A stretch of DNA of 64,000 bases. It comes from Gammaproteobacteria bacterium. Its GTDB lineage: Bacteria > Pseudomonadota > Gammaproteobacteria > JAJDOJ01. The translations under genes and the position numbers were made by a program. Each line of letters opens with the position of its first letter. The stretch's first letter is position 1. The notes below the pieces were generated by a model, which saw nothing but the letters and a program-made list of their open reading frames with translations, was not told where the DNA came from and ran no database searches. The DNA lies in contig JALSSO010000081.1 of assembly GCA_026984215.1 (NCBI GenBank), positions 16,657 to 80,656 on the forward strand, read 5' to 3'. Of this stretch, positions 4,620 to 48,970 are shown piece after piece.

Positions 4620-5285
4620 ATGAGCGAGCACCGCGTCGAACACCCCATCGGGAAACGGTTCCGGGGCTTCCTGCCGGTGGTGGTGGACGTGGAGACCGGC
4701 GGCTTCGACCCGAAGCGGGACGCGCTCCTGGAGATCGCCGCGGTACTGCTCCAGATGAATGAAAAGGGCTTTCTGGAGCCGGCCGAGACCATCGCCACCC
4801 AGGTGGTGCCCTTCGAGGGGGCGAATCTCGACGAGGCCTCCCTCAACGTCAACAAGATCGACCCGTTCCACCCCCTGCGCATCGCCGTGCCCGAACAGCA
4901 GGCCCTGGGTCACGTCTTCTCCAAGGTGCGCAAGGCGGTCAAGGCCAATCAGTGCACACGGGCCATCCTGGTGGGACACAACGCTGCCTTCGATCTGGCC
5001 TTCCTGAACGCGGCCGTGGAACGCACCGGCATCAAGCGTAACCCCTTTCACCCCTTCAGTGCGCTGGACACGGTCACCCTGGGTGCGGTCTGCTACGGGC
5101 AGACCGTGTTGTCACGCATCCTCGAGGCCGCCGGCATTCCTTTCGACAGCAGGGAGGCGCACTCGGCCGTGTACGACGCCCAGAAGACCGCGGAGCTGTT
5201 CTGCACCGTCGTCAACCGCTGGCATACGCTGTGCGACGCACCCGCCTGGCCGGAAGCCGGGGAGCAGGCCCAAGGTGCGGGCTGA
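4620..5285 (+). CDS. rnt: Ribonuclease T (DEDDh 3'-5' exoribonuclease)
   Basis: 221 aa. [12 protein letters not shown]...[14 protein letters not shown]...[14 protein letters not shown] exonuclease motifs typical of RNase T. Confidence 0.85.
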
Positions 5286-18652: not shown

Positions 18653-20290
18653 TCACCCGGCGCAGCAGGACAACTGGCCGACATCCTTGCGGAAGGTCTG
18701 CGCGCAGAGCTTGAGCCCCTCGACCAGGGTCAGGTAGGGAAAGAGCCGTCCGGCCAGCTCGTCCACGGTCATGCCGGCACCGATGGCCAGGGCCGCGCTC
18801 TGGATCACCTCCCCCGCACCGGCTGCCAGCACCTGAGCGCCGAGCAGCCGCCCGTGGCGCGCGTCGGCCACCAGCTTGATGAACCCGCGGGTGTCGAAGT
18901 TGGCCAGGGCCCGGGGAACCTGCCCCAGGTCCAGGATCCGGGCCTCCGCCTCCAGGCCCCGCTGGCGCGCCTGCGTCTCGGTCAGCCCCACGCTGGCCAC
19001 CGCCGGGTCCGTGAACGTCACGGTGGGCAGCACGGAGAGGTCCAGGCGCGCATCGCCGCCCGTGAGATTGACGGCGGCCCGCGTGCCCGCCGCGGCGGCC
19101 ACGTAGACGTATTGGGGCAGCTCGGTGCAGTCGCCGGCGGCGTAGATGTGAGAAACCGAGGTGCGCAGATGGTCATCGACGAGGATCGCACCCTGGACAT
19201 CGGTCTCGACACCGATGCGTTCCAGACCCAGCCCGGCGGTGTTGGGCGTGCGCCCGGTGGCCACCAGCAGCCGGTCGCCTTCGATCACACCGTGCCGGGT
19301 CTCCAGGACAAAACCGCCGACCCCGTGCCTGACGGCGGTGGGTACGGTGTCGCAAAGCACGCGGATCCCCTCGGCCTCGAAGGCGGCGCGCAGCCCCGCC
19401 CCCAGGGCTGGATCCTCTCGCGAGAGCAGGCGGCTGCGCGCGAGGATCGTCACCGCCGCGCCGAGCCGCCGGAAGGCCTGGCCCAGCTCCACGGCCACCA
19501 CCGAGCCGCCCAGAATCACCAAATGCTCCGGGACCGTCTCCGCCGCCAAGGCCTCGGTGGAGGTCCAGAACGGCGTGTCGGCGAGTCCCGGAATCTCAGG
19601 AACGGCCGGCCGCGCGCCGGTGGCGATCAGCACGCCCTCGGCTCGAACCTCGGTCTCGGTCCCGTCCGCGTGGCGCACGAGCAGCCTGTGGGGGGTCGCG
19701 AAACGAGCCCGGCCCCGCAGCAGCCGGATGGTCTCCCGACCCTCCAGGAGGGCCTCGTACTTGACGTGGCGCAGCTCGGCGACCCGCGCCTGCTGCTGGC
19801 GCAGCTGGGCGGCCCGGTCGACGGCGGGCACGCAATGGGCCAACCCTTCGAACGGATGCCGAGCCTGCAGATGGGCGATCTCCGCCAGGCGGATGAGAAT
19901 CTTCGAGGGCACACAACCCACGTTCACGCAGGTCCCGCCCAGCACCGGGGCGGCCTCCACGAGCGTTACCTGCGCGCCACGCGAGGCGGCCTCCAGCGCC
20001 GCCGCGAAGGCCGCCGAGCCACCGCCCACGATGGCGATCCGGGTCGCGGGGCCGCCGGCCATCGACTCGGACCGCGGGCGTTCCTCCAGCAGTCGCGCTC
20101 GGTAGCCGCTCTCCGCCACGGCTCGTACCAGGGCCTCCGGCGACACCCCCTGATCCACCTCCACCCGCGCCGTGGCGCTGGCGAAATCCACATGCGCCCG
20201 CACCCCCGGCACGGCGTTCAGGGCCGCCTCGACGCTGCGCGCGCAGTGCTCGCAGGTCATGCCCGTGATCCGCAGCGACCTGCGGTTCAT
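18653..20290 (-). CDS. merA: Mercuric reductase with an N-terminal HMA (NmerA) domain
   Basis: The start MNRRSLRITGMTCEHC (GMTCxxC heavy-metal-associated motif), the redox-active GTCVNVGCVPSK and the C-terminal vicinal cysteines ...QLSCCAG are all diagnostic of MerA. ATG at 20290 overlaps the merT stop. Confidence 0.9.
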   Translation of the reverse strand: MNRRSLRITGMTCEHCARSVEAALNAVPGVRAHVDFASATARVEVDQGVSPEALVRAVAESGYRARLLEERPRSESMAGGPATRIAIVGGGSAAFAAALEAASRGAQVTLVEAAPVLGGTCVNVGCVPSKILIRLAEIAHLQARHPFEGLAHCVPAVDRAAQLRQQQARVAELRHVKYEALLEGRETIRLLRGRARFATPHRLLVRHADGTETEVRAEGVLIATGARPAVPEIPGLADTPFWTSTEALAAETVPEHLVILGGSVVAVELGQAFRRLGAAVTILARSRLLSREDPALGAGLRAAFEAEGIRVLCDTVPTAVRHGVGGFVLETRHGVIEGDRLLVATGRTPNTAGLGLERIGVETDVQGAILVDDHLRTSVSHIYAAGDCTELPQYVYVAAAAGTRAAVNLTGGDARLDLSVLPTVTFTDPAVASVGLTETQARQRGLEAEARILDLGQVPRALANFDTRGFIKLVADARHGRLLGAQVLAAGAGEVIQSAALAIGAGMTVDELAGRLFPYLTLVEGLKLCAQTFRKDVGQLSCCAG

Positions 20291-20643
20291 GGCAGGAACA
20301 ACGTGCCGTAGTAAGGGAAGGCCACCAGCATCACAGCCACCAGCGCCACGCCCCAGAACACCCGACGCGCCCGGCGCCGGGCCGGCGAGACGGCGCATGC
20401 ACCCTGCGTCCCGCAAACGGCCGGCACCCGGTACAACCGCCAGCCGGCCAGCCCGAGCAGCGCCGCGGTGAGGCCGATGAACACCGGCCGGTACGGCGCC
20501 AGTGCCGTGACCGCGCTCATCCAGGCCCCGCCAAGCCCGAGCGTTGCAAGTACGAACGGCCCGAGGCAGCAGGCCGAGGCGCCCAAGGCGGTGAGCAGGG
20601 CGGCGGCCAGGCCAGGCGCGTTGCCAGGTTCTACATCCGGCAT
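20287..20643 (-). CDS. merT: Mercuric ion transport protein MerT
   Basis: 119 aa from MPDVEPGNAPGLAAALLTALGASACCLGPFVLATLGLGGAW. It has the TM1 CC pair and a second Cys pair (CGTQGAC), matching Tn501/Tn21 MerT topology. Confidence 0.85.
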   Translation of the reverse strand: MPDVEPGNAPGLAAALLTALGASACCLGPFVLATLGLGGAWMSAVTALAPYRPVFIGLTAALLGLAGWRLYRVPAVCGTQGACAVSPARRRARRVFWGVALVAVMLVAFPYYGTLFLP

Positions 20644-20694
20644 GAAGACAGCTCCGCACGCAAGTGCATGATCGAACCACACCGGATTGTGCGG

Positions 20695-23698: not shown

Positions 23699-24540
23699 CC
23701 GATTATCGGACGCGCTTCAGGATCGCGCCGGGCACGCGGGTGCGGTTGCGGGACCACGACCCGGGTTACAAGGACCGGCACCGATCCAAGAAAGAGGCCG
23801 CCCCCGAGATCGAACGCTACGCCCGGCGCCTGCGCGAGCTCCAGTACCTGCTCTACGCCGAGGGGCGGCGCAGTCTGCTGATCGTCCTGCAGGCCCTGGA
23901 TGCGGGCGGCAAGGACGGCACCATCCGCCACGTGCTCGGCTACATGAATCCCCAGGGCTGCCGCGTGCACGCCTTCAAGGTCCCCACCCCCGAGGAGGCC
24001 GCCCACGATTTCCTGTGGCGCGTGCACCAGGCGGCTCCACGTATCGGGGAGGCGGCCATCTTCAACCGCTCCCACTACGAGGACGTGCTCGTGACCCGCG
24101 TGCACGGCTTGGTGTCCAAGTCCGAGTGCAAGGCCCGCTACGCGCACATCAACGCCTTCGAGCGGTTGCTGGCCGACCGCGCTACGGTGATCCTGAAGTT
24201 CTTCCTGCACATCAGCGCCGAAGAACAACTGCGCCGTTTCCGCAAGCGACTCGACGATCCCAAACGCTGGTGGAAACTCAGCGAGGCCGACTTCGAGGAA
24301 CGTCGGTACTGGGACGCCTATCAGGAAGCCTACGAAGACGCCCTGTCCCGGTGCAGTACCGAACACGCCCCCTGGTTCGTCATCCCGGCCGACCACAAGT
24401 GGTTCCGCAACTTGGCCGTTTCCCGGATCGTGGTCGAAACCCTGGAGGCACTGGACATGTCCTTTCCGCCCCCCAAGGTGGACATCGAGGCCCTGCGGGC
24501 ACGCTGGCGGGAACTCGCCGGAAAGGAACGGGAATCCTGA
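23689..24540 (+). CDS. ppk2: Polyphosphate kinase 2 family (polyphosphate:nucleotide phosphotransferase)
   Basis: 284 aa. LLIVLQALDAGGKDGTIRHV (Walker A-like), ...FNRSHYEDVLV..., ...KFFLHISAEEQLRRFRKR... are PPK2 motifs. Good RBS ggaggggaag before the ATG at 23689. Confidence 0.85.
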   Translation: MPTTDYRTRFRIAPGTRVRLRDHDPGYKDRHRSKKEAAPEIERYARRLRELQYLLYAEGRRSLLIVLQALDAGGKDGTIRHVLGYMNPQGCRVHAFKVPTPEEAAHDFLWRVHQAAPRIGEAAIFNRSHYEDVLVTRVHGLVSKSECKARYAHINAFERLLADRATVILKFFLHISAEEQLRRFRKRLDDPKRWWKLSEADFEERRYWDAYQEAYEDALSRCSTEHAPWFVIPADHKWFRNLAVSRIVVETLEALDMSFPPPKVDIEALRARWRELAGKERES

Positions 24541-33023: not shown

Positions 33024-34418
33024 TTGCGAATCCGTTTTCACGGCGCCGACCGGGAGGTGACGGGGTCCTGTCACCTGGTGGAATGCGCGGGCAAACGCAT
33101 CCTGATCGACTGCGGCCTGTATCAGGGCGGCGGCGAGCTGGACGAGATCAACCGCCGGCCGTTCGGCTTCGATCCGGCCTCGATCGATGTGCTGCTCCTG
33201 ACGCACGCCCACCTGGACCACTGTGGCCGCATTCCCCTGCTGGTGGCCGAAGGGTTTCGCGGCGAGATCATCACCACCTCGGCCACCCGGGAGCTGAGCC
33301 GCCTGGTGTTGCTCGACGCGGCCCACCTGCAGGAGGAGGAGGCCGAGCGCAAGGCGCGGCATGCGGCACGCCACAGGGGGCGGCGCGTGCGAGTGGAACC
33401 CCTGTACACCACGCTGGACGCCCTCAACAGCCTGGACTTCTTCGGGCGCGTGGCCGAGTACGGGCGACCGCTGGAGCTGGGTGCCGGCATCCGCGCCAGC
33501 TTTCACGATGCGGGCCACATCCTCGGCTCGGCCAGCGTGCTCCTGACGCTCGAGGAAGGCGGCCGCCGGCGGCGCGTGCTGTTCTCCGGAGACATCGGAT
33601 ACGGCGGCCGACCCATCCTGCGCGATCCGCAGCCGCCCTCCGAGGTCGATGTGCTGGTCATGGAGACCACGTACGGCGACCGGCGCCACAAGGCCCTGCA
33701 ACCCTCGCTGGAGGAACTCTACGGCGCGATCGAGACGACCCTCCAGGGGGGCGGTAACGTCGTGATCCCGACGTTTGCGCTGGAGCGGGCCCAGGAGGTG
33801 CTCTTCTACCTGCGCGAGGCCGTGGAAAGCGGGCGCCTGCCGCGTGCCCTGCAGGTATTCCTGGACTCACCCATGGCCATCTCCGCCACCGAGATCTTCC
33901 GCCGTCACCCGGAATGCTACGACGCCCAGACCGCGGAACTGTTTCGCAACGGCAGGGACCCTTTCGCACTGCCCAACCTGCACTTCACGCGCGAGGCCGC
34001 CCAGTCCATGGCCCTGAATCACATCCACGCCGGGGCGGTGATCATGGCCGGCTCCGGGATGTGTACCGGCGGGCGGGTGCGCCATCACCTGAAGCACAAT
34101 CTGTGGCGGGACGAGTGCAGCGTCGTCTTCGTCGGCTACGCCGCGCACGGCACCCTAGCGCGCATCATCATCGACGGGGCCAAAAAGGTGAAACTCTTCG
34201 GCGAGGAGATCCCCGTGCGCGCCCGCATCCACACCATCGGAGGCTTCTCCGCGCACGCCGACGCCCGGGAACTGATGCACTGGCTGGAGGCCGTGGGCCG
34301 GCCGAAGCGCATCTTCCTGGTCCACGGGGAAGAACACGCCATGGGCGCGTTCGCGCGCCACCTCCACCACGCACGGGTCTCCATGCCGAGACTCGGGGAG
34401 ACCTTCGAGATCGACTGA
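33024..34418 (+). CDS. MBL-fold metallo-hydrolase of the beta-CASP RNA-metabolising family (RNase J/CPSF-like)
   Basis: HxHxDH metallo-beta-lactamase motif (LLLTHAHLDHCGRIPLL), beta-CASP motifs (...VMETTYGDRRH..., ...IGGFSAHAD...) and an RMMBL C-terminus. Confidence 0.8.
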   Translation: MRIRFHGADREVTGSCHLVECAGKRILIDCGLYQGGGELDEINRRPFGFDPASIDVLLLTHAHLDHCGRIPLLVAEGFRGEIITTSATRELSRLVLLDAAHLQEEEAERKARHAARHRGRRVRVEPLYTTLDALNSLDFFGRVAEYGRPLELGAGIRASFHDAGHILGSASVLLTLEEGGRRRRVLFSGDIGYGGRPILRDPQPPSEVDVLVMETTYGDRRHKALQPSLEELYGAIETTLQGGGNVVIPTFALERAQEVLFYLREAVESGRLPRALQVFLDSPMAISATEIFRRHPECYDAQTAELFRNGRDPFALPNLHFTREAAQSMALNHIHAGAVIMAGSGMCTGGRVRHHLKHNLWRDECSVVFVGYAAHGTLARIIIDGAKKVKLFGEEIPVRARIHTIGGFSAHADARELMHWLEAVGRPKRIFLVHGEEHAMGAFARHLHHARVSMPRLGETFEID

Positions 34419-35520: not shown

Positions 35521-38022
35521 TCACCCGCCCCCGGGGCGTGGGCGACCCGTATGCCCAGGCTGCCGGAGGACGTCCAGGAACCGCCGGTGGCGGGGCACTT
35601 CGTGGCGCAGGTGCCGGTAGACCTGCACTTTGACCAGATCGGTGACCAGTGCCGAGCCCAGAGAATAGCCCCAGATCAGCGCGATCTCCGGCCAACTGAT
35701 CGGCGCGATGACCCCGAAACCGTAGGCCGCGAACAAGGTAGCGGCCAGTTTGGTGATCACCGCTGACCAGATCATGATGGGCGCCGGCCACGGACGCTCC
35801 CAGAAATGCCCTTTGGTGCGGGCCACGAACAGCACCAGGTGGCCGGCCACCGCCATCTTGAGGAACACATAGGTCTGGATCTGCGGCACGTCGAGCCGCA
35901 ACCAATCCATGGCCAGCAGCAGCATCCCGAAGCTGCCCACTACGCCCACCAAACCCATGGCCGTGGCCACCGTGATGACCTGGCGCATATCCCAGCGCAC
36001 CGGCCGTCGCGACAGCCCCGTGCGGTCGTAGGCGATGGTCATGATGGGCACGTCGTTGAAGAAGGCCAGCAGGATGATCATGATCGCGGTGATGGGATAG
36101 AAGCCGAAAAAGATCATCGCCAACACCACGAAGAACATGACCCGGATGGTCTCGCTGATCCGGTACACCGCATAGGCGTTCATGCGCTCGAAAATACGCC
36201 GGGCCTCCTCGATAGCCTGCACGATCACCGCCAGCCCCGGTGCGGTGAGCACCAAGTCGGCCGCGGCACGTGCCGCGTCGGTCGCCCCACTCACCGCGAT
36301 CCCCACGTCGGCCTGCTTGAGTGCGGGCGCGTCGTTGACGCCGTCGCCCGTCATACCGGTGATGTGACCGCGGGCTTGCAGCAGCCGCACGATGCCGAAC
36401 TTGTGTTCGGGGAAGACCTCGGCGAAACCGTCGGCCGCCTCCACCCGTTCGACGGCCTTCCCGTCGGGTGTCCCCCCCGGATCCAACGGGAGCGCACTGG
36501 CGGGTAGGATCTGCCCACCCAAGCCGAGCTTGCGGGCGATCTGTCGCGCGATGGACAGATTGTCTCCCGTCACCATCTTGACCCGCACGCCGTATTCACG
36601 GGCGCGTGCGATGGTGTTGGCCGAGTCCTGGCGGGGCGGGTCGAACAGCGAGAGGATGCCGAGCAGGGTCCAATGCTCGCCCCCCGGTCCCCTGCGTGCC
36701 ACGGCCAGGGCACGGTAGCCATCGGCCGCAAAGGACTCGACCACCTGCTCCGCGCGACGGCGCTGTGCCGTGTCCATCTGCGCCAGATCCAGCACCACCT
36801 GGGGCGCCCCCTTGGTCACTCGGAACCGGCGCCCTTGCCCGTCCTCGACCAAGGCCTCGGTGCGCTTGCGCACCGGATCGAAGGGCACGAACTCCACCTG
36901 CCGATAGCGCTCCAGCACGGCTCGGTCGGCAAGTCCCTCCAGCACCGCCTCGTCGATGGCGTCCCGGTCCTCGGCCCTGGACGCCAGCGCGGCCGCCAAC
37001 AGCACCGCCTGCTCGTCGGACGCGGCGAAGACCTCGATCCGCCCCAGGGTGAGCCGGTTCTGGGTGAGGGTGCCGGTCTTGTCCGAACACAGCACGTCCA
37101 TGCTGGCCATCTCCTCGATGGATTCCAGCCGCGTGACGATGGCCTTCATGCGCGACAGCACCATGGCACCCACCGCCATGGTCATGGACAGTACCGCCGG
37201 CATGGCCACCGGAATGGAGGCCACGGTGAGAATCAGGGCGAACTGGACCACTTCCAGCCAGGGCGATCCACGGTGGAGCTGGACCAGCACGAGCACCACC
37301 ACCAGGGCCAGACTCACGTAGATCAGGTAGTCGCCTATGGTGAGCACGGCCTTCTGGAAATGGGACACCGTCTCGGCCTGCTCCACCAGCCCGGCCGTTT
37401 TGCCGAAGCGGGTGCGCGTGCCGGTGGCGGTGACCTCGGCCACTACCTCACCCTGTTTGACCACCGTTCCCGAAAAGGCTTCGTCGCCCCGGCGCTTGGT
37501 CACCGGCAGCGACTCGCCGGTGAGGGCGGACTGGTCCACACTGAGGTAGTCGCCCTGTACGATACGCACGTCGGCCGGAATGACGTCGCCCAGGCGTATG
37601 CGGATAATGTCGCCGGGGACGAGCTGCGCCGCGTCGATCTCCTGCCAGCGGCCGTCGCGCAGCACTCGGGCCCGCCGCGCGAGCTGTTTCTTCAGAGCTT
37701 CGACTGCGTTGCCAGCGGTGTATTCCTGCCAGAACCCCACTGCCGCGTTGAACACCAGCAACGCCGTGATGATCCAGAAGTCCACCCAGTGTCGCACCAA
37801 GGCCGAGAGCACCGCCGCCACTTCGATCATCCACGGGATCGGCCCCCAGAAATACCCGGCCAGGCGGCGCAACGGCGAGACCTTCTTCTCCGGTAGCGCG
37901 TTGGGACCATAACGGGCCAGGCGGCGTTCGGCTTCCTCGGCGCTCAGGCCACCCGATGGGATATCGACGTCACTGGACGGAGCTTGGATCGTGGGGTCCA
38001 CGGCCTTTCCTCGGTATCGCAT
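35521..38022 (-). CDS. P3A-type plasma-membrane H+-ATPase homologue (P-type ATPase)
   Basis: 833 aa. ...TGESLPV..., the phosphorylation motif CSDKTGTLT, ...MTGDGVNDAPALKQADVGIAV.... The overall layout resembles fungal/plant PMA-type pumps also found in some bacteria. Confidence 0.85.
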   Translation of the reverse strand: MRYRGKAVDPTIQAPSSDVDIPSGGLSAEEAERRLARYGPNALPEKKVSPLRRLAGYFWGPIPWMIEVAAVLSALVRHWVDFWIITALLVFNAAVGFWQEYTAGNAVEALKKQLARRARVLRDGRWQEIDAAQLVPGDIIRIRLGDVIPADVRIVQGDYLSVDQSALTGESLPVTKRRGDEAFSGTVVKQGEVVAEVTATGTRTRFGKTAGLVEQAETVSHFQKAVLTIGDYLIYVSLALVVVLVLVQLHRGSPWLEVVQFALILTVASIPVAMPAVLSMTMAVGAMVLSRMKAIVTRLESIEEMASMDVLCSDKTGTLTQNRLTLGRIEVFAASDEQAVLLAAALASRAEDRDAIDEAVLEGLADRAVLERYRQVEFVPFDPVRKRTEALVEDGQGRRFRVTKGAPQVVLDLAQMDTAQRRRAEQVVESFAADGYRALAVARRGPGGEHWTLLGILSLFDPPRQDSANTIARAREYGVRVKMVTGDNLSIARQIARKLGLGGQILPASALPLDPGGTPDGKAVERVEAADGFAEVFPEHKFGIVRLLQARGHITGMTGDGVNDAPALKQADVGIAVSGATDAARAAADLVLTAPGLAVIVQAIEEARRIFERMNAYAVYRISETIRVMFFVVLAMIFFGFYPITAIMIILLAFFNDVPIMTIAYDRTGLSRRPVRWDMRQVITVATAMGLVGVVGSFGMLLLAMDWLRLDVPQIQTYVFLKMAVAGHLVLFVARTKGHFWERPWPAPIMIWSAVITKLAATLFAAYGFGVIAPISWPEIALIWGYSLGSALVTDLVKVQVYRHLRHEVPRHRRFLDVLRQPGHTGRPRPGGG

Positions 38023-38089: not shown

Positions 38090-39336
38090 TCAAGTCTTGG
38101 AGGCGCCCGGATCCGGAAGCCGCAACGAGAGCAGTGCCGCGGCCAGTACGAAGGCCGCCGACCACCACAGGCAACCCTGCAGACCGTGGCGCTGATAGAC
38201 CCACCCCGATAGCACCGTTCCGGCCAGCCGTCCGGCCGCGTTGGACATGTAATAGAAACCCACACTCATTGCCACGCGGTCGCGGTCCGAATAGGCCAGG
38301 ATCAGATACGAGTGCACCGCCGAGTTGACGGCGAACACCACGCCGAACAGGATCAGGCCGCCGACGATGACCGGCTGCGGCGGCCAGCCTTGCCGCAGGG
38401 CCAGGGCGATGCCCGCCGGAAACAAGGCCAGCGCGAAGGCCCACATACGGGCCGTGCTCCCACCCGGCCCCCTTCCGTGACGGCTGTGCCCGAGGAGCCG
38501 AGGCGCGCCCGCCTGGACGAATCCGTAGCCGATCACCCACAGGGCCAGGAACCCTCCCACGCGCATGAAATCCCAGCCCAGCACGTCGTACAGGAACACC
38601 GGCAACCCCACCACGAACCACACGTCGCGCGAGCCGAACAGGAAAAAGCGTGCCGCAGACAACCAGTTGATGGCCGCCACGCGGGAGAAGACCTGGGTGA
38701 ATCTGGGCTTGGAGTGCATCCGCCCCACCCCGTGCGGCAGCAACCATGCGGTGACCAGGAGCACCACGGCGAGCAGTCCCGCCAGAACCCCCAGTGCCCA
38801 ACGGAACCCCACCGTCTGCAACAGCGCCGCCCCGACGAAGAAGCCCGCCCCCTTCAGCGCGTTCTTGGAGCCGGTGAGCACCGCCACCCAGCGGAACAGG
38901 CGAGAGCCGCCGCCCGCCTCGCCCGACAGGGCCTTGACCGAGGCCTTGGCCGACATCTTGTTAAGATCCTTGGCGATGCCGGACAGGGCCTGCGCGGCCA
39001 TCACGTAGGGCACGCTCAACCAGGCGTTCGGTACCGTGAGCAGGAGCAGCGCCACCACCTGAAGCGCCATGCCCAGATGCATGGTCAGATTGAGTCCGAC
39101 GCGCGCCCCCAGCCAGCCGCCCACCAAGTTCGTGACCACGCCGAAGAACTCGTAGAACAGGAACAGCATGGCGATCTCGAAGGGCGAATAGCCCAGCCGG
39201 TGGAAATACAGCACCACCAGCATGCGGATCGCCCCGTCGGTGACCGTGAACGCCCAGTAGCCGGCGGTGACGACCAGGTAGTTGCGCAGATCGGATTGCA
39301 CGGACGAGGCCTGCGGAAAACCGGATCCGCTCGCCA
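38090..39336 (-). CDS. MFS-family transporter (about 12 TM segments)
   Basis: Lies within ORF 38090..40333(-); the upstream 330 codons have no coding character. Probable GTG start at 39336 (VASGSGFPQ...LVVTAGYWAFTVTDGAIRML = TM1), preceded by GGAGA. Typical MFS loop motifs. Confidence 0.7.
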
Positions 39337-40788: not shown

Positions 40789-41652
<864 letters not shown>

Positions 41653-41726
41653 CGCTCACCACCTCCTTCTTGGCTTGTTCTGCAACTCCCCCGAGCGGAT
41701 CCGGCGGAGCCAGTCTGTATCCGAGT

Positions 41727-41753
41727 TTAGCACTCTCACGATGAGAGTGCTAA
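41727..41753. promoter_or_regulatory. Perfect CIRCE element (HrcA operator): TTAGCACTC-N9-GAGTGCTAA, 74-100 bp upstream of the rpoH start codon
   Basis: The sequence ttagcactc tcacgatga gagtgctaa matches the CIRCE consensus TTAGCACTC-N9-GAGTGCTAA at 18 of 18 positions. Confidence 0.7.
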
Positions 41754-41813
41754 CCACCGGAAAAGTTCACGGCTTTGGCATCGGATTTTCCATCGCCGTG
41801 CCGAGGGCAGGGC

Positions 41814-43361
41814 TCAGGAGACGATACGCGGCTTGAGCAACAGGGACTTGGCGGTCATCTGGGGCGGCTGGGGGATGCCCATGAGCTGCAGGATGGTCGG
41901 GGCTATATTGCTGATCCCCCCGCCGGTCAGCAGCTGCCAGGGCTGCTCGTCGATGACCAGACACGGCACCGGATACAGCGTATGCTGGGTGTGGGGCTCG
42001 CCGGTGACCGGATCGACCATCTCGTCGCAATTGCCGTGGTCGGCGGTGAGCAGCACCGAGACGCCGTTGTCCACCGCCGCGTCCAGCACCCGCCCCACGG
42101 CCTCGTCGAGCGCCTCCACCGCGCGGATGATGGCCTCGCGCTTGGCGGTGTGCCCCACCATGTCGCCGTTGGCGAAATTGACCACGATCCAGGCGTACTC
42201 CGGGTTCTCCAGGGCATGGACCACGTGGTCGGCCACCTCATAGGCGCTCATCTCGGGTTTCTGATCGTAGGTGGCCACCCGGGGCGAGGGGACCATGACC
42301 CGGTCCTCGCCGTCATAAGGCTGCTCCCGCCCCCCGTTGATGAAAAACGTGACGTGCGCGTACTTCTCCGTCTCGGCGCAGTGGAACTGACGAAGCCCCG
42401 CCTCGGATATGATCTTGCCGAGCGTGGTGCGGGGCACCTCGGGACGGAACGCGATCGAGCACGGGTAGTGAGCGTCGTACTCGGTCATGGTGACCACGCT
42501 CACGGGCAGGAAGTCGCCCCGTTCGAAGTGATCGAAATCCCGCGTGGCCAAGGCCTTGACCAGCTGGCGCGGCCGGTCGTTGCGGAAATTGAAGAACACC
42601 ACCACGTCCTCGGGACTCATGGGCAAACAAGGGGGCAGTACGGTGGGCGGGATGAACTCGTCGCCCAAACCCCGCTCGTAGGCCGCGTCGATGGCCTCGG
42701 TGGCGTTCCTGGCCTGCTCGCCCTCGCAACGGACGATGGCCCGCCAGGCCTTTTCGGTACGGTCCCAGCGCTTGTCACGGTCCATGGCGTAATACCGTCC
42801 CATGACCGTGGCGATCGCCCCGTCCGCCTCGTACAAGGCCTCTTCCAGAAACGGCAGGTAGTCCTTGGCCATGCGCGGCGGGGTGTCGCGCCCGTCGGTG
42901 ATCATGTGCACCAGGGGCTTGACGCCGTGCCGTTTGCACAGGTCGATCAGGGCCAGCAGATGCCGGATGTGCGAATGGACCCCCCCGTCCGAGACCAGAC
43001 CGATCAGGTGGACCGGCCGCTTGGTGTCCTGCGCCTTGCGCATGGCGAACAGGAAGGCGGGATTGTCGTAGAAACTGCCGTCCTCGATGGCCTCGTCGAT
43101 CCGCACCAGATCCTGCCGGATGATGCTCCCGCAGCCGATGGTGATGTGCCCGACCTCGGAGTTGCCCATCTGCCCAGGCGGCAATCCCACCGCACGCCCC
43201 GAGGCCTCCAGGGTGGTATGCGGATGGGTCGAGAAATAATGATCCAGGCGCGGGGTGTCGGCCAGCACGACGGCGTTGTTGGCCTTGCTCGGATTGCAGC
43301 CGAACCCATCCAGGATGACCAGCAAGGCACGGCGACGGATCTGAATCGGTTCTTCAGGCAT
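41814..43361 (-). CDS. gpmI: 2,3-bisphosphoglycerate-independent phosphoglycerate mutase
   Basis: 515 aa. ...LVILDGFG...NSEVGHITIGCG...TDGRDTPP...ADHGNCDEM... are iPGM motifs. Confidence 0.9.
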   Translation of the reverse strand: MPEEPIQIRRRALLVILDGFGCNPSKANNAVVLADTPRLDHYFSTHPHTTLEASGRAVGLPPGQMGNSEVGHITIGCGSIIRQDLVRIDEAIEDGSFYDNPAFLFAMRKAQDTKRPVHLIGLVSDGGVHSHIRHLLALIDLCKRHGVKPLVHMITDGRDTPPRMAKDYLPFLEEALYEADGAIATVMGRYYAMDRDKRWDRTEKAWRAIVRCEGEQARNATEAIDAAYERGLGDEFIPPTVLPPCLPMSPEDVVVFFNFRNDRPRQLVKALATRDFDHFERGDFLPVSVVTMTEYDAHYPCSIAFRPEVPRTTLGKIISEAGLRQFHCAETEKYAHVTFFINGGREQPYDGEDRVMVPSPRVATYDQKPEMSAYEVADHVVHALENPEYAWIVVNFANGDMVGHTAKREAIIRAVEALDEAVGRVLDAAVDNGVSVLLTADHGNCDEMVDPVTGEPHTQHTLYPVPCLVIDEQPWQLLTGGGISNIAPTILQLMGIPQPPQMTAKSLLLKPRIVS

Positions 43362-43435
43362 CAGGTTCTCGCGATCGTTCGGGGCGGAAGCCGGGCCGCC
43401 CCTGACCCGGGCGCGGATTCTACCAGCTTCGGGGG

Positions 43436-44305
43436 TCAGTCGGCGCGGGGGGCGCCCGAGGTGTCGTGCTCTTCCCGCTCGGCGGCGTCGAGCTCGGCCT
43501 CCATCTCGGCATCGCTCATGACCGCCCCGCCGGCCGCATCCCCGGACCGTTCCCGTTCCGCCCGGCGCTTGACCAGGATCCGCGAGAAAAGAATCCCCAA
43601 CTCAAACAACAGCCACATGGGGATGGCCAGTAGCGTCTGGGAGATGACGTCCGGGGGCGTGAGCAGCATGCCGACGACGAACACACCCACGACCACATAG
43701 GGGCGCTTCTTGGCCAAGGCCTCGGGGGTGGTCACGCCCATCATCACCAGGACCACCGTCACGATGGGCACCTCGAAGGCGGCCCCAAAGGCCAGAAAGA
43801 CCAGGATGACGAAATCCAGATAGCGGGAGATGTCCGTCATCACCGTCACCCCCTCGGGCGCCGAGGCGGTGAAGAAGGCGAAGGCCAGCGGGAACACCAC
43901 GAAGTAGGCGAAGGCCATGCCCAGGTAGAACAACAAGGTACTGGAGACCAGGATCGGCGCCACCAACCGTCGCTCGTGCCGGTACAACCCCGGCGCCACG
44001 AAGGCCCACACCTGATAGAGGATGAACGGCATGGCCAACACCACCGCAAGCAACAGGGCCAGCTTGAAGGGGATGAGAAACGGGGCCGCCACGTCGATGG
44101 CGATCATGGTGCTGCCTTGGGGAAGCTGCCGGGTCAACGGCCCGGCCAGCACCGTGTAGATGCGGTTGGCGAACGGGGCCAGCGCGACAAACACCACCAG
44201 CACCGCCAGCACCGCACGCAGGAGCCGGTCGCGCAGCTCCACCAGGTGCGACAGGAAGCTTTCTTCCTTGTCGGCCTCAGGCTCGGTGTGTGGGTTTTCC
44301 GTCAT
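43436..44305 (-). CDS. tatC: Twin-arginine translocase subunit TatC
   Basis: 289 aa, 6 TM segments. N-terminal ...[12 protein letters not shown]... and ...[16 protein letters not shown]... are TatC motifs. The annotated start overlaps the tatB 3' end. Confidence 0.9.
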
Positions 44306-44762
44306 CGGGAGCGGTCACGGGCTGGGCGGACTGCGGGCTTGCGTCGGGCGGCGAGGAAGCCGGCTCCCGCCGCAGTAATTCCGTCGCGGAGGACGGCGCG
44401 CCAGACTCGACTCGGGCCGCGGTCTGGTCCGCCGGAGAGGCCTCGGCACCGCGCTGGATCTGCTCCTCGATGGCCTGTACGAGGCTGTCCGTCTCTCCGA
44501 GTTCCTCGCGGACCTCGGCCTGGGTCTCCTCCAACATGCCCCGCAACTGCTCGATCTCGCTCTGCTGCTTGTTGAGCATCTCGCGCAGTTCTTCGGCCCG
44601 CAACTCGCGCTCGATATCGGAGCGCACGCTGGCGACGAAGCGCTTGGCCTTGCCCACCCACAGCCCGGCCTTGCGGGCGACACCGGGCAGGCGCTCCGGA
44701 CCGATCACGAGCAGCGCCACGATGAAGACGACAACGAGTTCCCAGAACCCCAGATCGAACAT
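44277..44762 (-). CDS. tatB: Twin-arginine translocase subunit TatB
   Basis: [38 protein letters not shown]: TM helix, amphipathic helix, then an acidic tail. Confidence 0.85.
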
Positions 44763-44866
44763 GACGGAAGCGGACTGCGTTCAGCCGGCGGAGCCGAGAC
44801 CCGACACCCGGGGGCGGGCGGAAAACGGACCGACCCGTGGAGGAACCCCGTGCCCGCGGGGCCTAC

Positions 44867-45114
44867 TCAAGCCTTGGCCTTGCTGTCGGTCTTGGTCTCG
44901 GCACCCGTGGCACCGGCTTCCTGGTGCTCGACCTGCTTGGCCGCGGCTTCGTCCTTGGACTCGTCGGCCTCGGCCGACTTCATCGCCTGCTTGAAGTTCT
45001 TGATGGCGGTGCCCAGGTCACCGCCCACGTTGCGCAGTTTCTTGGTGCCGAACAGGAGGACGATGATCGCCAGAACGATCAACAACTGCCAGATGCTGAT
45101 TCCACCGAATCCCA
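44867..45114 (-). CDS. tatA: Twin-arginine translocase subunit TatA
   Basis: Internal start [35 protein letters not shown] (ATG at 45114); 82 aa. Confidence 0.85.
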
Positions 45115-45134
45115 TGATGTGCTCACTCCAGTAT

Positions 45135-45464
45135 TCAGTTGGGGGCGGAACGCCGGGCCTTCTCCTCCAGCCCGGAGAGGCCGAAGCGTCCGCCGAGAAC
45201 GGCCAGCACGTCCCGGGGTCCCATGCCCTGCTGCGCCAGCAGCACCATGCAATGGAACCACAGATCGGCGGTCTCCTCGGCGATCCGCCGACGATCCCCA
45301 TCCTTGGCGGCCATGACCAGCTCCGTGGCCTCTTCGCCGATCTTTTTCAAAATGGCATCGAGCCCCTTTCTGTAGAGGCTGGCCACGTAGGAGCGCCCGG
45401 CGTCCGCGGTCTTCCGTTGCTCGAGGACCTCGGCCAGTCGTTGCAGGATCTCGCCGTGTTCCAT
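45135..45464 (-). CDS. hisE: Phosphoribosyl-ATP pyrophosphatase
   Basis: 109 aa. ...[31 protein letters not shown]...[13 protein letters not shown] is the HisE signature. Confidence 0.85.
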
Positions 45465-45582
45465 GCGCCGCGCTCCCGGATCTCGCTGTGCGGGGCGGGA
45501 ATCCGGCCAGCATCGGAGCGGTGTCCCTTCGTCCGGCGCCGTCGAATCCCCTTGATGTCCCTATCCTAACGCAAACCGCGGT

Positions 45583-46350
45583 TCATCGTCGCACGGGAAT
45601 GCCCGCCGCCGCCATGTGACGCTTGGCTTCGGCGATGGTGTATTCGCCGAAGTGGAAGATGCTGGCCGCGAGCACCGCATCCGCCTTGCCTTCGGTGACC
45701 CCCTCGACCAGGTGGTCCAAGGTACCCACCCCGCCGGAGGCGATCACCGGGATGCGTACCGCCTCGCTGATGGTGCGGGTGAGCGCCAGATCGAACCCGG
45801 ACTTGGTCCCGTCCCGGTCCATGCTGGTCAACAGGATCTCGCCGGCGCCATAGGATGCCATCTTGCGCGCCCAGGCCACGGCATCCAGTCCGGTGGGCTT
45901 GCGGCCGCCGTGGGTGAAGATCTCCCAGCGCGGCGGGTCCTGCGCCACCTGCTTGGCGTCGATGGCCACGACGATGCACTGGGAACCCACTTTGTCGGCG
46001 GCCTCCCGCACGAACTCCGGATCGAATACCGCCGCGGTGTTGATGGCCACCTTGTCGGCACCCGCCGTGAGCATGCGCCGAATGTCCTCCACCTTGCGGA
46101 TGCCGCCACCCACCGTCAGTGGAATGAACACCTCGGCGGCCACGTCCTCCACCACGTGCACGATGGTCTCACGGTCGTCGGAGCTGGCCGTGATGTCCAG
46201 GAAGGTGATCTCGTCGGCCCCCTCCCGGTCGTAGCGCCGGGCGATCTCCACCGGATCGCCTGCGTCCCGGATGTCCACGAAACGCACCCCCTTGACCACG
46301 CGGCCGGCGTCCACGTCCAGGCAGGGGATGATCCGCTTGGCCAGGGTCAT
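45583..46350 (-). CDS. hisF: Imidazole glycerol phosphate synthase, cyclase subunit
   Basis: Internal start [24 protein letters not shown]... (ATG at 46350). The upstream part of the long ORF is a GC artefact. Confidence 0.9.
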
Positions 46351-47093
46351 TGCGTGTCTGCCCCGTGCCGATCGGCGTAGGCCTGGGCCTCGGCCAGGTC
46401 GAGGGTCCCTTCGTAGAGCGCTCGGCCGATGATGGCCGCCTCGATTCCCTCGTCCTCCACGGCGCACAGGGCCTCCACGTCGGCCATGGTGCTCACCCCA
46501 CCCGAGGCGATGACCGGCACCCGCACGGCCTGGGCCAGGCGCACCGTGGCCTCCACGTTGACGCCCTGCATCATGCCGTCGCGGCTGATGTCCGTATAGA
46601 CGATGGCCGCCACCCCGTCGTCCTCGAAGCGCCGGGCCAGATCGATCACGTCGTGGTGGGACAACTTGGACCAGCCGTCGGTGGCCACCCTGCCTTCGCG
46701 GGCGTCCAGGCCCACGATGATGTGGCCGGGGAATTCCAGGCACAGATCGTTGACGAAGTGCGGGGCGGAGACCGCCTTGGTGCCGATGATGACATACTGC
46801 ACACCCGCGTCCAGGTAGGCCTGCACGGTGTCGGCGTCGCGGATTCCCCCGCCCACCTGGATCGGCAGGTCCGGGAACCGCTCGGCGATGCGGTGGATCA
46901 CACCGGCATTGACCGGCTCACCCCGCTTGGCGCCGTCCAGGTCCACCAAGTGCAGACGCCGGGCCCCGGCATCGACCCAACGGGCGGCCATTTCCACGGG
47001 GTCGTCGGAGAACACGGTCACATCGTTCATGTCGCCCTGACGCAGACGCACGCAGTGACCGTCTTTCAGATCGATGGCTGGAATCAGGAGCAT
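46347..47093 (-). CDS. hisA: Phosphoribosylformimino-5-aminoimidazole carboxamide ribotide isomerase
   Basis: [17 protein letters not shown]...VGGGIRD...IASGGVS are HisA signatures. Confidence 0.9.
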
Positions 47094-47148
47094 GGGTTCT
47101 GGCTCGTCGGTGGTTTGCTCGGTTTGCCGGACGGCGGGGCGCAGTCGT

Positions 47149-47805
47149 TCAGGGCGCCTGACCGTCCCAACGCGCGAAGTTCTCCAGCAGACGGATCCCG
47201 GCCTGGGCGCTCTTCTCGGGATGGCTCTGGATGGCGAACACGTTGTCGTGTCCGAGCGCCGAGGTGAAGGGGATGCCGTAGTCGGTCACCCCGAGACGCA
47301 GCGCCTCGGCCGTGGGATCGGCATAGTAGCTGTGCACGAAATAGAAATAGCTGTCCTGTGGGATGCCCCGCCACAAGGGGTGCGGTCCGGTCTGATGGAC
47401 GGTGTTCCAGCCCATGTGCGGTATCTTGAGCGCGCGCCCGGCCGGGAGCGCATCCAAGGCGGCGGCAAAGGACTTCACCCGACCCGGAAACACGCCCAGA
47501 CAGGCGGTGCCCCCATTCTCCTCGCTGGACTCCAGAAGCACTTGCATGCCCATGCACACGCCGAGAAACGGCTTGCTGCGCACGGCCTCCACGATGGCCT
47601 CGTCCAGACCCGTCTCGCGCAGGGCGCGCATGCAGTCGGCCGCGGCCCCCTGACCCGGGAACACCACGCGGTCGGCCCGCCGCACCACTGCGGGCTGCGA
47701 ACTGATCCGTACGACCGTATCGGCGGGCGCCACGTGTTCCAGCGCCTTGGCCACCGAGCGCAGGTTACCCATCCCGTAATCCACGATCACGATCGTTGCG
47801 GCCAT
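47149..47805 (-). CDS. hisH: Imidazole glycerol phosphate synthase, glutaminase subunit
   Basis: [19 protein letters not shown]...GVCMGMQVL...HSYY..., a class I glutamine amidotransferase. Confidence 0.9.
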
Positions 47806-47853
47806 CGTTATGCTGTTTCGGCTCCGATTCGGGGGCGAAAGTTCCTCGAGCGC

Positions 47854-48447
47854 TCAGACGAGGGTGCCCTTGGTGGAGGGGGTCCGACCTTCCATGCGCG
47901 GGTCGGGCTCCACGGCGGCCCGCACCGCCCGCCCGAAGGCCTTGAACACGGTTTCGGCCATGTGGTGGGCGTTGCGCCCCCGCAGGCAGTCGACGTGCAG
48001 CGTGGCGCGGGCGTGATTCACGAATCCCTGGAAGAACTCCCGGAACAAGTCCACGTCGAAGGCGCCGATGCGGGCGCGTGGGTATTCGACGTGGTATTCC
48101 AACCCGGGCCGGCCGGAGAAGTCGACCACCACCCGGGACAGCGCCTCGTCCAGTGGCACGTACGCGTGACCGTAGCGCTGGATGCCACGCTTGTCGCCCA
48201 ACGCGCGCTCGAAGGCCTGACCCAGCGTGATGCCGATGTCCTCCACCGTGTGGTGGTCGTCGATGTGCCGATCGCCCCGGGCGCGGATCTCCAGATCCAG
48301 CATCCCATGCCGGGCCACCTGATCCAGCATGTGCTCCAAGAAAGGCACCCCGGTGTCGAAATCCGCCGCCCCGGTACCGTCCAGATCCAGACGCACCTGG
48401 ATCTGGGTCTCCAGGGTGTCGCGCCGGACCTCTGCGTTGCGACTCAT
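47854..48447 (-). CDS. hisB: Imidazoleglycerol-phosphate dehydratase
   Basis: Internal start [26 protein letters not shown] (ATG at 48447). ...[11 protein letters not shown]...[10 protein letters not shown] motifs. Confidence 0.9.
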
Positions 48448-48499
48448 GCCCGCTCCTCGAATCCGTGGACCCGCATGTCTCCCGGCCGGAAGATCCGGT

Positions 48500-48970
48500 T
48501 CAGCGGATTCTATCATCGCCCGCGCCCGGGGGCCCCACCTCCAGCCAGAAGGTCACCGGCCCGTCGTTGGTGAGTTCCACCGCCATGTGGGCGCCGAACC
48601 GGCCCGTTTCGCAGGCGCCGTGCAGGGCACGGGCGCGTTCCACGAACCGCTGGTAGAGGCGCCTGCCCTCGCCGGGGTCGGCGGCCTGCGAGAAGCTCGG
48701 CCGCAGCCCCTTGCGGGTGTCGGCGGCCAGGGTGAACTGAGAGACCACCAGCAACCCCCCGCCCGTATCGGAGAGACTGCGGTTCATCCGCCCCGCGCCG
48801 TCCGGGAAAACGCGATAGCGCAGCACGCGCTCCAGCAGGCGGTCCGCCTCGCGCTCCGTGTCGCCGGCCACCACTCCCAGGAACACCAGCAGTCCCGCGC
48901 GGATCTCGCCCACGATCTCACCCTCCACCAGCACGCGGGCCCTCGTCACCCGTTGCAGCAATGCGATCAT
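48500..48970 (-). CDS. dtd: D-aminoacyl-tRNA deacylase
   Basis: Internal start [33 protein letters not shown]...[17 protein letters not shown] (ATG at 48970). Confidence 0.85.

Follow-up and report, generated by a model that had tools for sequence, protein, structure and literature searches.

A CIRCE-type operator superimposed on a predicted sigma-E-type promoter upstream of rpoH in a gammaproteobacterial contig

Introduction

Among the closest described systems are the CIRCE elements of the groESL and hrcA-grpE-dnaK operons, for which Bacillus subtilis provides the paradigm. The rpoH-associated element considered here shares with them the identical 9-N9-9 inverted repeat, a position in a heat-shock promoter or leader, and the presumed GroEL-dependent repressor. 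The classical targets are chaperone operons, whereas the target here is rpoH, a regulator gene. The promoter geometry also differs: at groE and hrcA, a TTGACA-N17-TATAAT promoter lies just upstream and CIRCE starts at about +1, whereas the rpoH operator lies within the promoter itself.

Association of CIRCE with rpoH has precedents. Work by Permina and Gelfand from 2003 reportedly found CIRCE at rpoH in several beta- and gammaproteobacteria, and a 2007 study by Ueki and Lovley reportedly concerns such an element as well. In Geobacter sulfurreducens, a perfect CIRCE was predicted at -51 of rpoH (Rodionov et al. 2004, PMC545781, Table 8), and the same authors cite Permina and Gelfand 2003 for the beta-, gamma- and epsilon-proteobacteria (PMC545781). 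The G. sulfurreducens element resembles ours in lying directly upstream of rpoH (at -51, as against -75 to -101 here) and in leading to the same inference, namely that HrcA controls sigma-32 synthesis; it differs in belonging to a deltaproteobacterium rather than a gammaproteobacterium, and Table 8 of PMC545781 mentions no overlap with a sigma-E-type promoter. The CIRCE-rpoH arrangement described below adds one more case to a known design, the general idea having been in print since 2003-2004.

The second relevant system is the sigma-E-dependent control of rpoH. Such transcription has been shown experimentally for the P3 promoter of E. coli and for fam, the rpoH homologue of B. bronchiseptica (PMC3490749), and the RpoE consensus comprises a -35 element GGAACTT and a -10 element TCAAA (Rhodius et al. 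2006, PMC1312014). A Burkholderia sigma-factor paper that we consulted contains nothing on rpoH promoters. The E. coli rpoH locus has no CIRCE, the organism has no HrcA, and P3 is unguarded, whereas at the locus described here the spacer and -10 element of the corresponding promoter double as the left half of a predicted HrcA operator.

Results and discussion

A perfect CIRCE in the gpmI-rpoH spacer

We analyzed a 64-kb stretch of gammaproteobacterial DNA, referred to as the window, in which rpoH (40789..41652, minus strand; 287 aa) is the presumed regulated gene. Its identity as the sigma-32 gene follows from matches above cutoff to two NCBIfam models, TIGR02392 (rpoH_proteo, 408.7 bits against a cutoff of 323) and NF005143 (424.3 bits), and a Shine-Dalgarno sequence GGAGG can be read at 41662..41666 (minus strand), 9 nt before the ATG. 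The co-directional upstream neighbor is gpmI (41814..43361, minus strand; TIGR01307, 662 bits), beyond which lie tatC, tatB and hisFAHB.

Within the 161-bp spacer between gpmI and rpoH, the sequence TTAGCACTCTCACGATGAGAGTGCTAA at 41727-41753 (minus strand) matches TTAGCACTC-N9-GAGTGCTAA with 0 mismatches, that is, at 18/18 positions and with a spacer of exactly 9 nt. It thereby has the defining form of CIRCE, a 9-bp inverted repeat TTAGCACTC / GAGTGCTAA separated by 9 nt. Read in the direction of rpoH it is TTAGCACTC tcatcgtga GAGTGCTAA, with nt 1 at 41753 and nt 27 at 41727; read on the forward strand it is TTAGCACTC-tcacgatga-GAGTGCTAA. The perfect CIRCE with a 9-nt spacer that the initial annotation had reported at these positions is therefore confirmed, as is its placement upstream of the sigma-32 start codon, the dyad spanning 75-101 nt upstream of the rpoH ATG.

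The dyad is the sole CIRCE match in the 64-kb window even when as many as 3 mismatches are allowed. No match arose in any of 100 dinucleotide shuffles of the window, and base composition predicts 1.3e-7 chance occurrences per window. The host genome has a G+C content of 67%, against which the A+T-rich dyad stands with all 18 positions intact.

The gpmI-rpoH spacer was also considered as a site of transcription termination. A scan of 41400-42100 returned no terminator-like site between the two genes. The dyad is followed by ACTCGGATAC, which contains no T-run, and it does not have the combination of G+C-rich stem and T-run that characterizes an intrinsic terminator.

Conservation of the dyad at rpoH across Beta- and Gammaproteobacteria

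Our comparison set consisted of 80 rpoH loci from Beta- and Gammaproteobacteria, one genome per species, chosen as the best matches to the window's RpoH. The nearest sampled RpoH, that of Ectothiorhodospira shaposhnikovii, is only 70% identical. A CIRCE with at most 3 mismatches is present 50-260 nt upstream of rpoH in 49 of the 80 loci and is perfect in 34, although these loci are mutually related and were picked by similarity to the query, so that the counts are not independent events. All nine of the closest dyad-carrying relatives show 0-1 mismatch. Carriers among the Gammaproteobacteria are Ectothiorhodospira, Woeseiaceae, Steroidobacteraceae, Dyella, Arenimonas and one Pseudoalteromonas, and carriers among the Betaproteobacteria are many, including Cupriavidus, Ralstonia, Pandoraea, Trinickia, Nitrosomonas, Thiobacillus and Rhodocyclaceae. 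The sampled rpoH loci of Enterobacterales, Vibrio, Pseudomonas, Aeromonas, Haemophilus and Francisella contain no CIRCE. The carriers thus cover two classes, and their flanks beyond the motifs do not align with one another.

An independent, unbiased sample was obtained by scanning metagenome contigs for perfect CIRCEs and classifying 120 listed loci by the gene that each precedes. Among those listed, groES/groEL follows in 41 cases, hrcA in 33, rpoH in 9 and dnaK in 1, the rest being short or unclassified; rpoH accordingly accounts for roughly 1 in 9 of the classifiable perfect CIRCEs in this list. The arrangement is not the unusual one that the initial annotation had implied, given 49/80 rpoH loci, 9 of the 120 listed metagenome CIRCEs, and a published case in Geobacter sulfurreducens.

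The genes upstream of rpoH differ from locus to locus. The most common upstream gene is ftsX (TIGR00439), found at 36 loci (36/77), and this ftsX-rpoH synteny occurs in CIRCE-bearing and CIRCE-less lineages alike. The ftsYEX-rpoH order is the classical synteny. In the window, rpoH instead ends a co-directional run hisB-hisH-hisA-hisF-tatB-tatC-gpmI-rpoH (40789-48516) and does not lie beside ftsYEX. Neither gpmI nor tatC is found upstream of rpoH in any of the 80 relatives, gpmI occupying that position in the window only. Since 49/80 loci carry the dyad even though their upstream genes differ, the dyad tracks rpoH and not the upstream gene, and the gene order indicates that rpoH was relocated behind hisBHAF-tatBC-gpmI together with its promoter/operator module.

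These observations bear directly on the possibility that the dyad is a chance palindrome or a leftover gpmI terminator, which the initial annotation had kept as its fallback. The dyad does lie downstream of the gpmI stop codon and is capable of forming a hairpin. Against this stand the expectation of 1.3e-7 per window, the missing T-run and terminator call, and the finding that 49 relatives carry the dyad while none of the 80 has gpmI upstream of rpoH. We therefore rejected this candidate as extremely improbable: conservation, neighbor genes and chance expectation together refute it. Because the same 18 positions are kept in 49/80 loci whatever the upstream gene, we regard the dyad as a selected rpoH operator; like other CIRCEs, it is located in a heat-shock promoter or leader, and this location is conserved at orthologous rpoH loci. 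Judged by this conservation, the dyad is an authentic operator of CIRCE type that selection has maintained at rpoH.

Several individual loci illustrate the range of the arrangement. On one contig (L028), perfect CIRCEs occur at 2850-2876 and 5051-5077, with rpoH and groES-groEL only 1.2 kb apart, so that one organism uses the identical element at both; the groES CIRCE on this contig is preceded by a TTGACA-N17-TAGATT promoter. In Pseudoalteromonas luteoviolacea (L047), a perfect CIRCE at 2926-2952 lies upstream of rpoH with TCTAA at the -10 register described below and no GGAACTT -35, and the other sampled Alteromonadales (L026 and L036) have no CIRCE at rpoH. In Lysobacteraceae and Nevskiales, a symmetric variant of the dyad, TTAGCAGTC-N9-GACTGC(T/C)AA, is found at rpoH, in which C7>G is accompanied by G21>C (L011, 2945-2971; L043, 2948-2974; L010, 2906-2932; L078, about 2948-2974). 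This variant could represent an operator of reduced strength, or HrcA proteins whose specificity has drifted. In X. campestris (L078), the left arm has decayed further, to CCGGCAGTC, and the sigma-E-type promoter is retained. Finally, two Pseudomonas loci carry cAGTGCTAg (L015) or cAGTGCTAc (L041) after a sigma-E (AlgU)-type promoter, about 40-60 nt upstream of the rpoH ATG; these match the right arm of CIRCE at 7/9 and 6/9 positions, respectively, at nearly the same position as in CIRCE-bearing relatives, and may be relic half-sites in a dyad-less lineage.

A sigma-E-type promoter in register with the dyad

When the 50 rpoH-associated sites (the 49 loci plus the window) were stacked on the dyad, two further conserved elements with the look of promoter motifs emerged, which would not be apparent from any one sequence. 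The recurring pattern is GGAACTT 9-10 nt upstream of the dyad together with a dyad spacer that starts T/C-A-A or TCA, which amounts to GAACTT-N16/17-TC(T/C)(A/C)A, the form of a sigma-E (RpoE/ECF02)-type promoter. Of the 50 rpoH-associated sites, 32 have a -35-like hexamer at offsets -15/-16 (background 0.0018 per position), and the full pattern, with the -10 element at CIRCE nt 8-12, is found in the window and in 30/49 loci. Five loci, of which four belong to Burkholderiaceae and one to Nevskiales, have a promoter of this type that stops 0-5 nt short of the dyad. The association is specific to rpoH: an in-register sigma-E -35 accompanies 37/59 rpoH sites and 0/75 perfect CIRCEs at groE, hrcA or dnaK (Fisher 6e-18).

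In the window, this promoter reads tGAACTT-N16-TCTCA (41769-41742), which has the sequence of an rpoH P3-type sigma-E promoter. The predicted -35 element GAACTT (41763..41768, minus strand) lies 9 nt upstream of CIRCE, and the predicted -10 element TCTCA (41742..41746, minus strand) follows 16 nt past it as CIRCE nt 8-12, in the register shared with the 30 loci; its first 2 nt close the left arm and its other 3 nt open the spacer. Two features make the window's version weaker than the family pattern, namely a -35 without the first G of GGAACTT and a -10 that falls below the family consensus. From the promoter geometry, the predicted transcription start falls some 6 nt beyond the -10, where spacer and right arm meet (41734..41736, minus strand). 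Such a start, at about 41735, would lie within the dyad and yield a leader of about 83 nt. The spacer TCATCGTGA (41736-41744) also happens to lengthen the palindrome to 12 bp with a loop of 3 nt (TCA...TGA). A comparable 3-bp extension is seen in only 2/50 rpoH-associated sites, and in the window it is probably a by-product of the TCTCA -10.

Comparison with E. coli (L202) places this promoter in a wider family. E. coli rpoH P3 reads GAACTT-N16-TCTGA with the end of its -10 at 92 nt from the ATG; the window reads GAACTT-N16-TCTCA with the corresponding distance at 89 nt. The motif common to the two is also kept at rpoH across Gamma- and Betaproteobacteria, so that a P3-type promoter is conserved at orthologous positions in other genomes, and the CIRCE-less Enterobacterales, Pseudomonas and Vibrio retain the sigma-E promoter alone. 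In motif and in distance to the ATG alike, the window promoter corresponds to E. coli rpoH P3. The initial annotation had set this locus apart from the classical control of rpoH by sigma-70/sigma-E promoters; that contrast falls away, as the equivalent of P3 is present here and CIRCE is superimposed on it.

The directional character of these motifs also helps in weighing whether the dyad acts mainly as an RNA hairpin that tunes the stability or processing of rpoH mRNA in transcripts that read through from gpmI or begin at an upstream promoter. The CIRCE stem-loop has been reported to affect mRNA stability or processing in some Gram-positive operons. With no terminator between gpmI and rpoH, read-through RNA would include the entire dyad; folding of the spacer region yields an 11-bp CIRCE hairpin, with a stability slightly above that of shuffled sequences (z = -2.0); and the symmetric TTAGCAGTC-N9-GACTGCTAA of Lysobacteraceae and Nevskiales preserves complementarity. 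Symmetric changes of the arms are, however, equally expected of a dimeric DNA-binding protein, and the arms are kept at the exact HrcA consensus, beyond what complementarity alone would need. A transcript from the predicted sigma-E start, which lies inside the dyad, would be without the left arm, and in 37/50 sites the palindrome is not extended into the spacer. Moreover, the spacer bias is one-sided, favoring T/C-A-A at the 5' end without a complementary preference at the 3' end, which fits a promoter element and neither a stem nor a dimer contact. We consider a primary role as an RNA hairpin unlikely.

The rpoH mRNA thermosensor of E. coli relies on temperature-labile pairing between the region of the start codon and a segment within the coding sequence. 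In the minimum-energy fold of the window's predicted 296-nt rpoH mRNA, the Shine-Dalgarno sequence and AUG are paired locally, in a structure whose stability does not exceed that of shuffles (z = +0.32), and no Rfam family matches the rpoH leader.

A possible extended -10 element at the right arm

The stack also points to a second promoter element at the other end of the dyad. In the window, TGCTAAACT (41724..41732, minus strand), made up of CIRCE nt 22-27 and the next 3 nt, is a possible extended -10 element of sigma-70 type; most relatives read TGCTAA(a/t)AT at this place, which can be likened to the extended -10 TGnTATAAT. Offsets 28 and 29 of the rpoH-associated stack are A in 41/50 and T in 47/50 sites, and this 'AT' follows 48/59 rpoH-associated CIRCEs as against 6/75 others (Fisher 5e-19). 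Similarly, a hexamer that matches TATAAT at 4/6 positions or more is found at 46/50 rpoH sites and at 13/75 others. The window's own hexamer, TAAACT (4/6), is weaker than the family consensus, and a generic sigma-70 promoter scan of the gpmI-rpoH spacer returned no promoter. We treat the right arm plus "aAT" as a putative extended -10 sigma-70 promoter.

The flanking GGAACTT and aAT distinguish rpoH CIRCEs from those at groE and hrcA. Both were also considered as parts of an extended HrcA site, a candidate that we rejected because they are absent from groE- and hrcA-associated CIRCEs.

Proposed control of rpoH

Taken together, the operator and the promoter motifs suggest that the dyad is probably a functional HrcA operator built into the rpoH promoter region, with occlusion of the promoter by HrcA as the putative mechanism. 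In this scheme, the left arm of the dyad and the first bases of its spacer would serve as spacer and -10 of the sigma-E-type promoter, and an HrcA dimer on the dyad would cover the sigma-E-type -10 and start as well as the putative extended -10 promoter, thereby blocking RNA polymerase. Following the HrcA-GroE titration model (PMC6032397), GroEL would keep HrcA active under non-stress conditions and rpoH transcription would be low; unfolded proteins would then titrate GroEL, HrcA would leave the dyad, and rpoH would be transcribed by E-sigmaE and/or E-sigma70 until restored chaperone capacity closed the dyad again. That HrcA binds here, which promoter or promoters are active, and how strongly and in which direction rpoH responds are all predictions from the sequence.

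The scheme presupposes that the organism encodes both HrcA and RpoE, as we infer it does. For a cognate HrcA, indirect support comes from L028, where CIRCE accompanies both rpoH and groESL. NCBIfam annotation of the 64-kb window contains no hrcA, groESL, dnaK or rpoE, and an HMM built from 24 HrcA ORFs adjoining metagenomic CIRCEs found no match in the window or within +/-3 kb of the rpoH loci. An RpoH identical to that of the window is on record only on the ENA metagenome contig ERZ27262647 k141_40441 (L081). By coordinate arithmetic, this contig begins at about window position 23953 and continues for some 39.7 kb beyond the right end of the window, which indicates that the window belongs to a different assembly, longer or overlapping, of the same organism or one nearly identical to it.

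The absence of hrcA from the 64 kb searched would also be expected if the gene had been lost from the lineage, leaving a functionless or slowly decaying relic of the dyad. Decayed rpoH dyads do exist in the same register, with 5 mismatches in X. campestris (L078) and 4 in another sampled locus (L006). Such a history fits poorly with the window, where 18/18 positions are intact in a 67% G+C genome in which an A+T-rich 27-mer should erode, and with the 0-1 mismatch seen in all nine of the closest dyad-carrying relatives; lineages known to lack HrcA, for their part, keep nothing recognizable. A relic is therefore quite improbable, and we favor a functional HrcA operator.

The idea in the initial annotation that HrcA and GroEL act upstream of sigma-32 gains support from the conservation of the operator at rpoH, although the arrangement is neither rare nor new. 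The one detail that is possibly undescribed is the fixed register of promoter and operator. We found no description of this CIRCE/promoter register or of the extended -10 feature in the literature accessible to us. That many Beta- and Gammaproteobacteria share an rpoH module of about 45 bp, in which a single HrcA dimer site sits within two promoters in fixed register, is a proposal that we put forward tentatively and consider less likely than not to be at once correct and undescribed.

Should this reading of the module be true, sigma-32 synthesis would be gated jointly by envelope stress (through sigma-E) and by cytoplasmic folding stress (through GroEL/HrcA), and E. coli P3 would represent this sigma-E-type promoter in a lineage that has lost HrcA. 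Indeed, the comparison suggests that P3 is a stripped-down form of a commoner design. Where both circuits exist, HrcA/GroEL and sigma-32 would be wired in series at the rpoH promoter, with the same base pairs also taking the sigma-E input. In E. coli, chaperone feedback on sigma-32 is post-translational only; series wiring would amount to a transcriptional chaperone feedback on sigma-32. For annotation purposes, the window's rpoH should be entered under two regulons, those of HrcA and RpoE, as a predicted member of each.

Other genes in the window

Some further genes in the window merit brief mention. At 35521-38022 (minus strand) lies a gene for an 833-aa P-type ATPase of the plasma-membrane proton-efflux type IIIA (TIGR01647, 1003 bits), a family typical of fungi and plants and uncommon on a gammaproteobacterial contig; it adjoins a gene for an ArsJ-like MFS transporter (about 38090-39300). 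A 464-aa metallo-beta-lactamase/beta-CASP protein is encoded at 33024-34418 (plus strand), with sub-threshold matches to the type VII CRISPR protein Cas14 (418 bits, cutoff 800) and to archaeal aCPSF1, and is probably a beta-CASP ribonuclease. Finally, an otherwise housekeeping region contains, at 18653-20680 (minus strand), the gene for an N-terminally extended mercuric reductase, MerA (780 bits).
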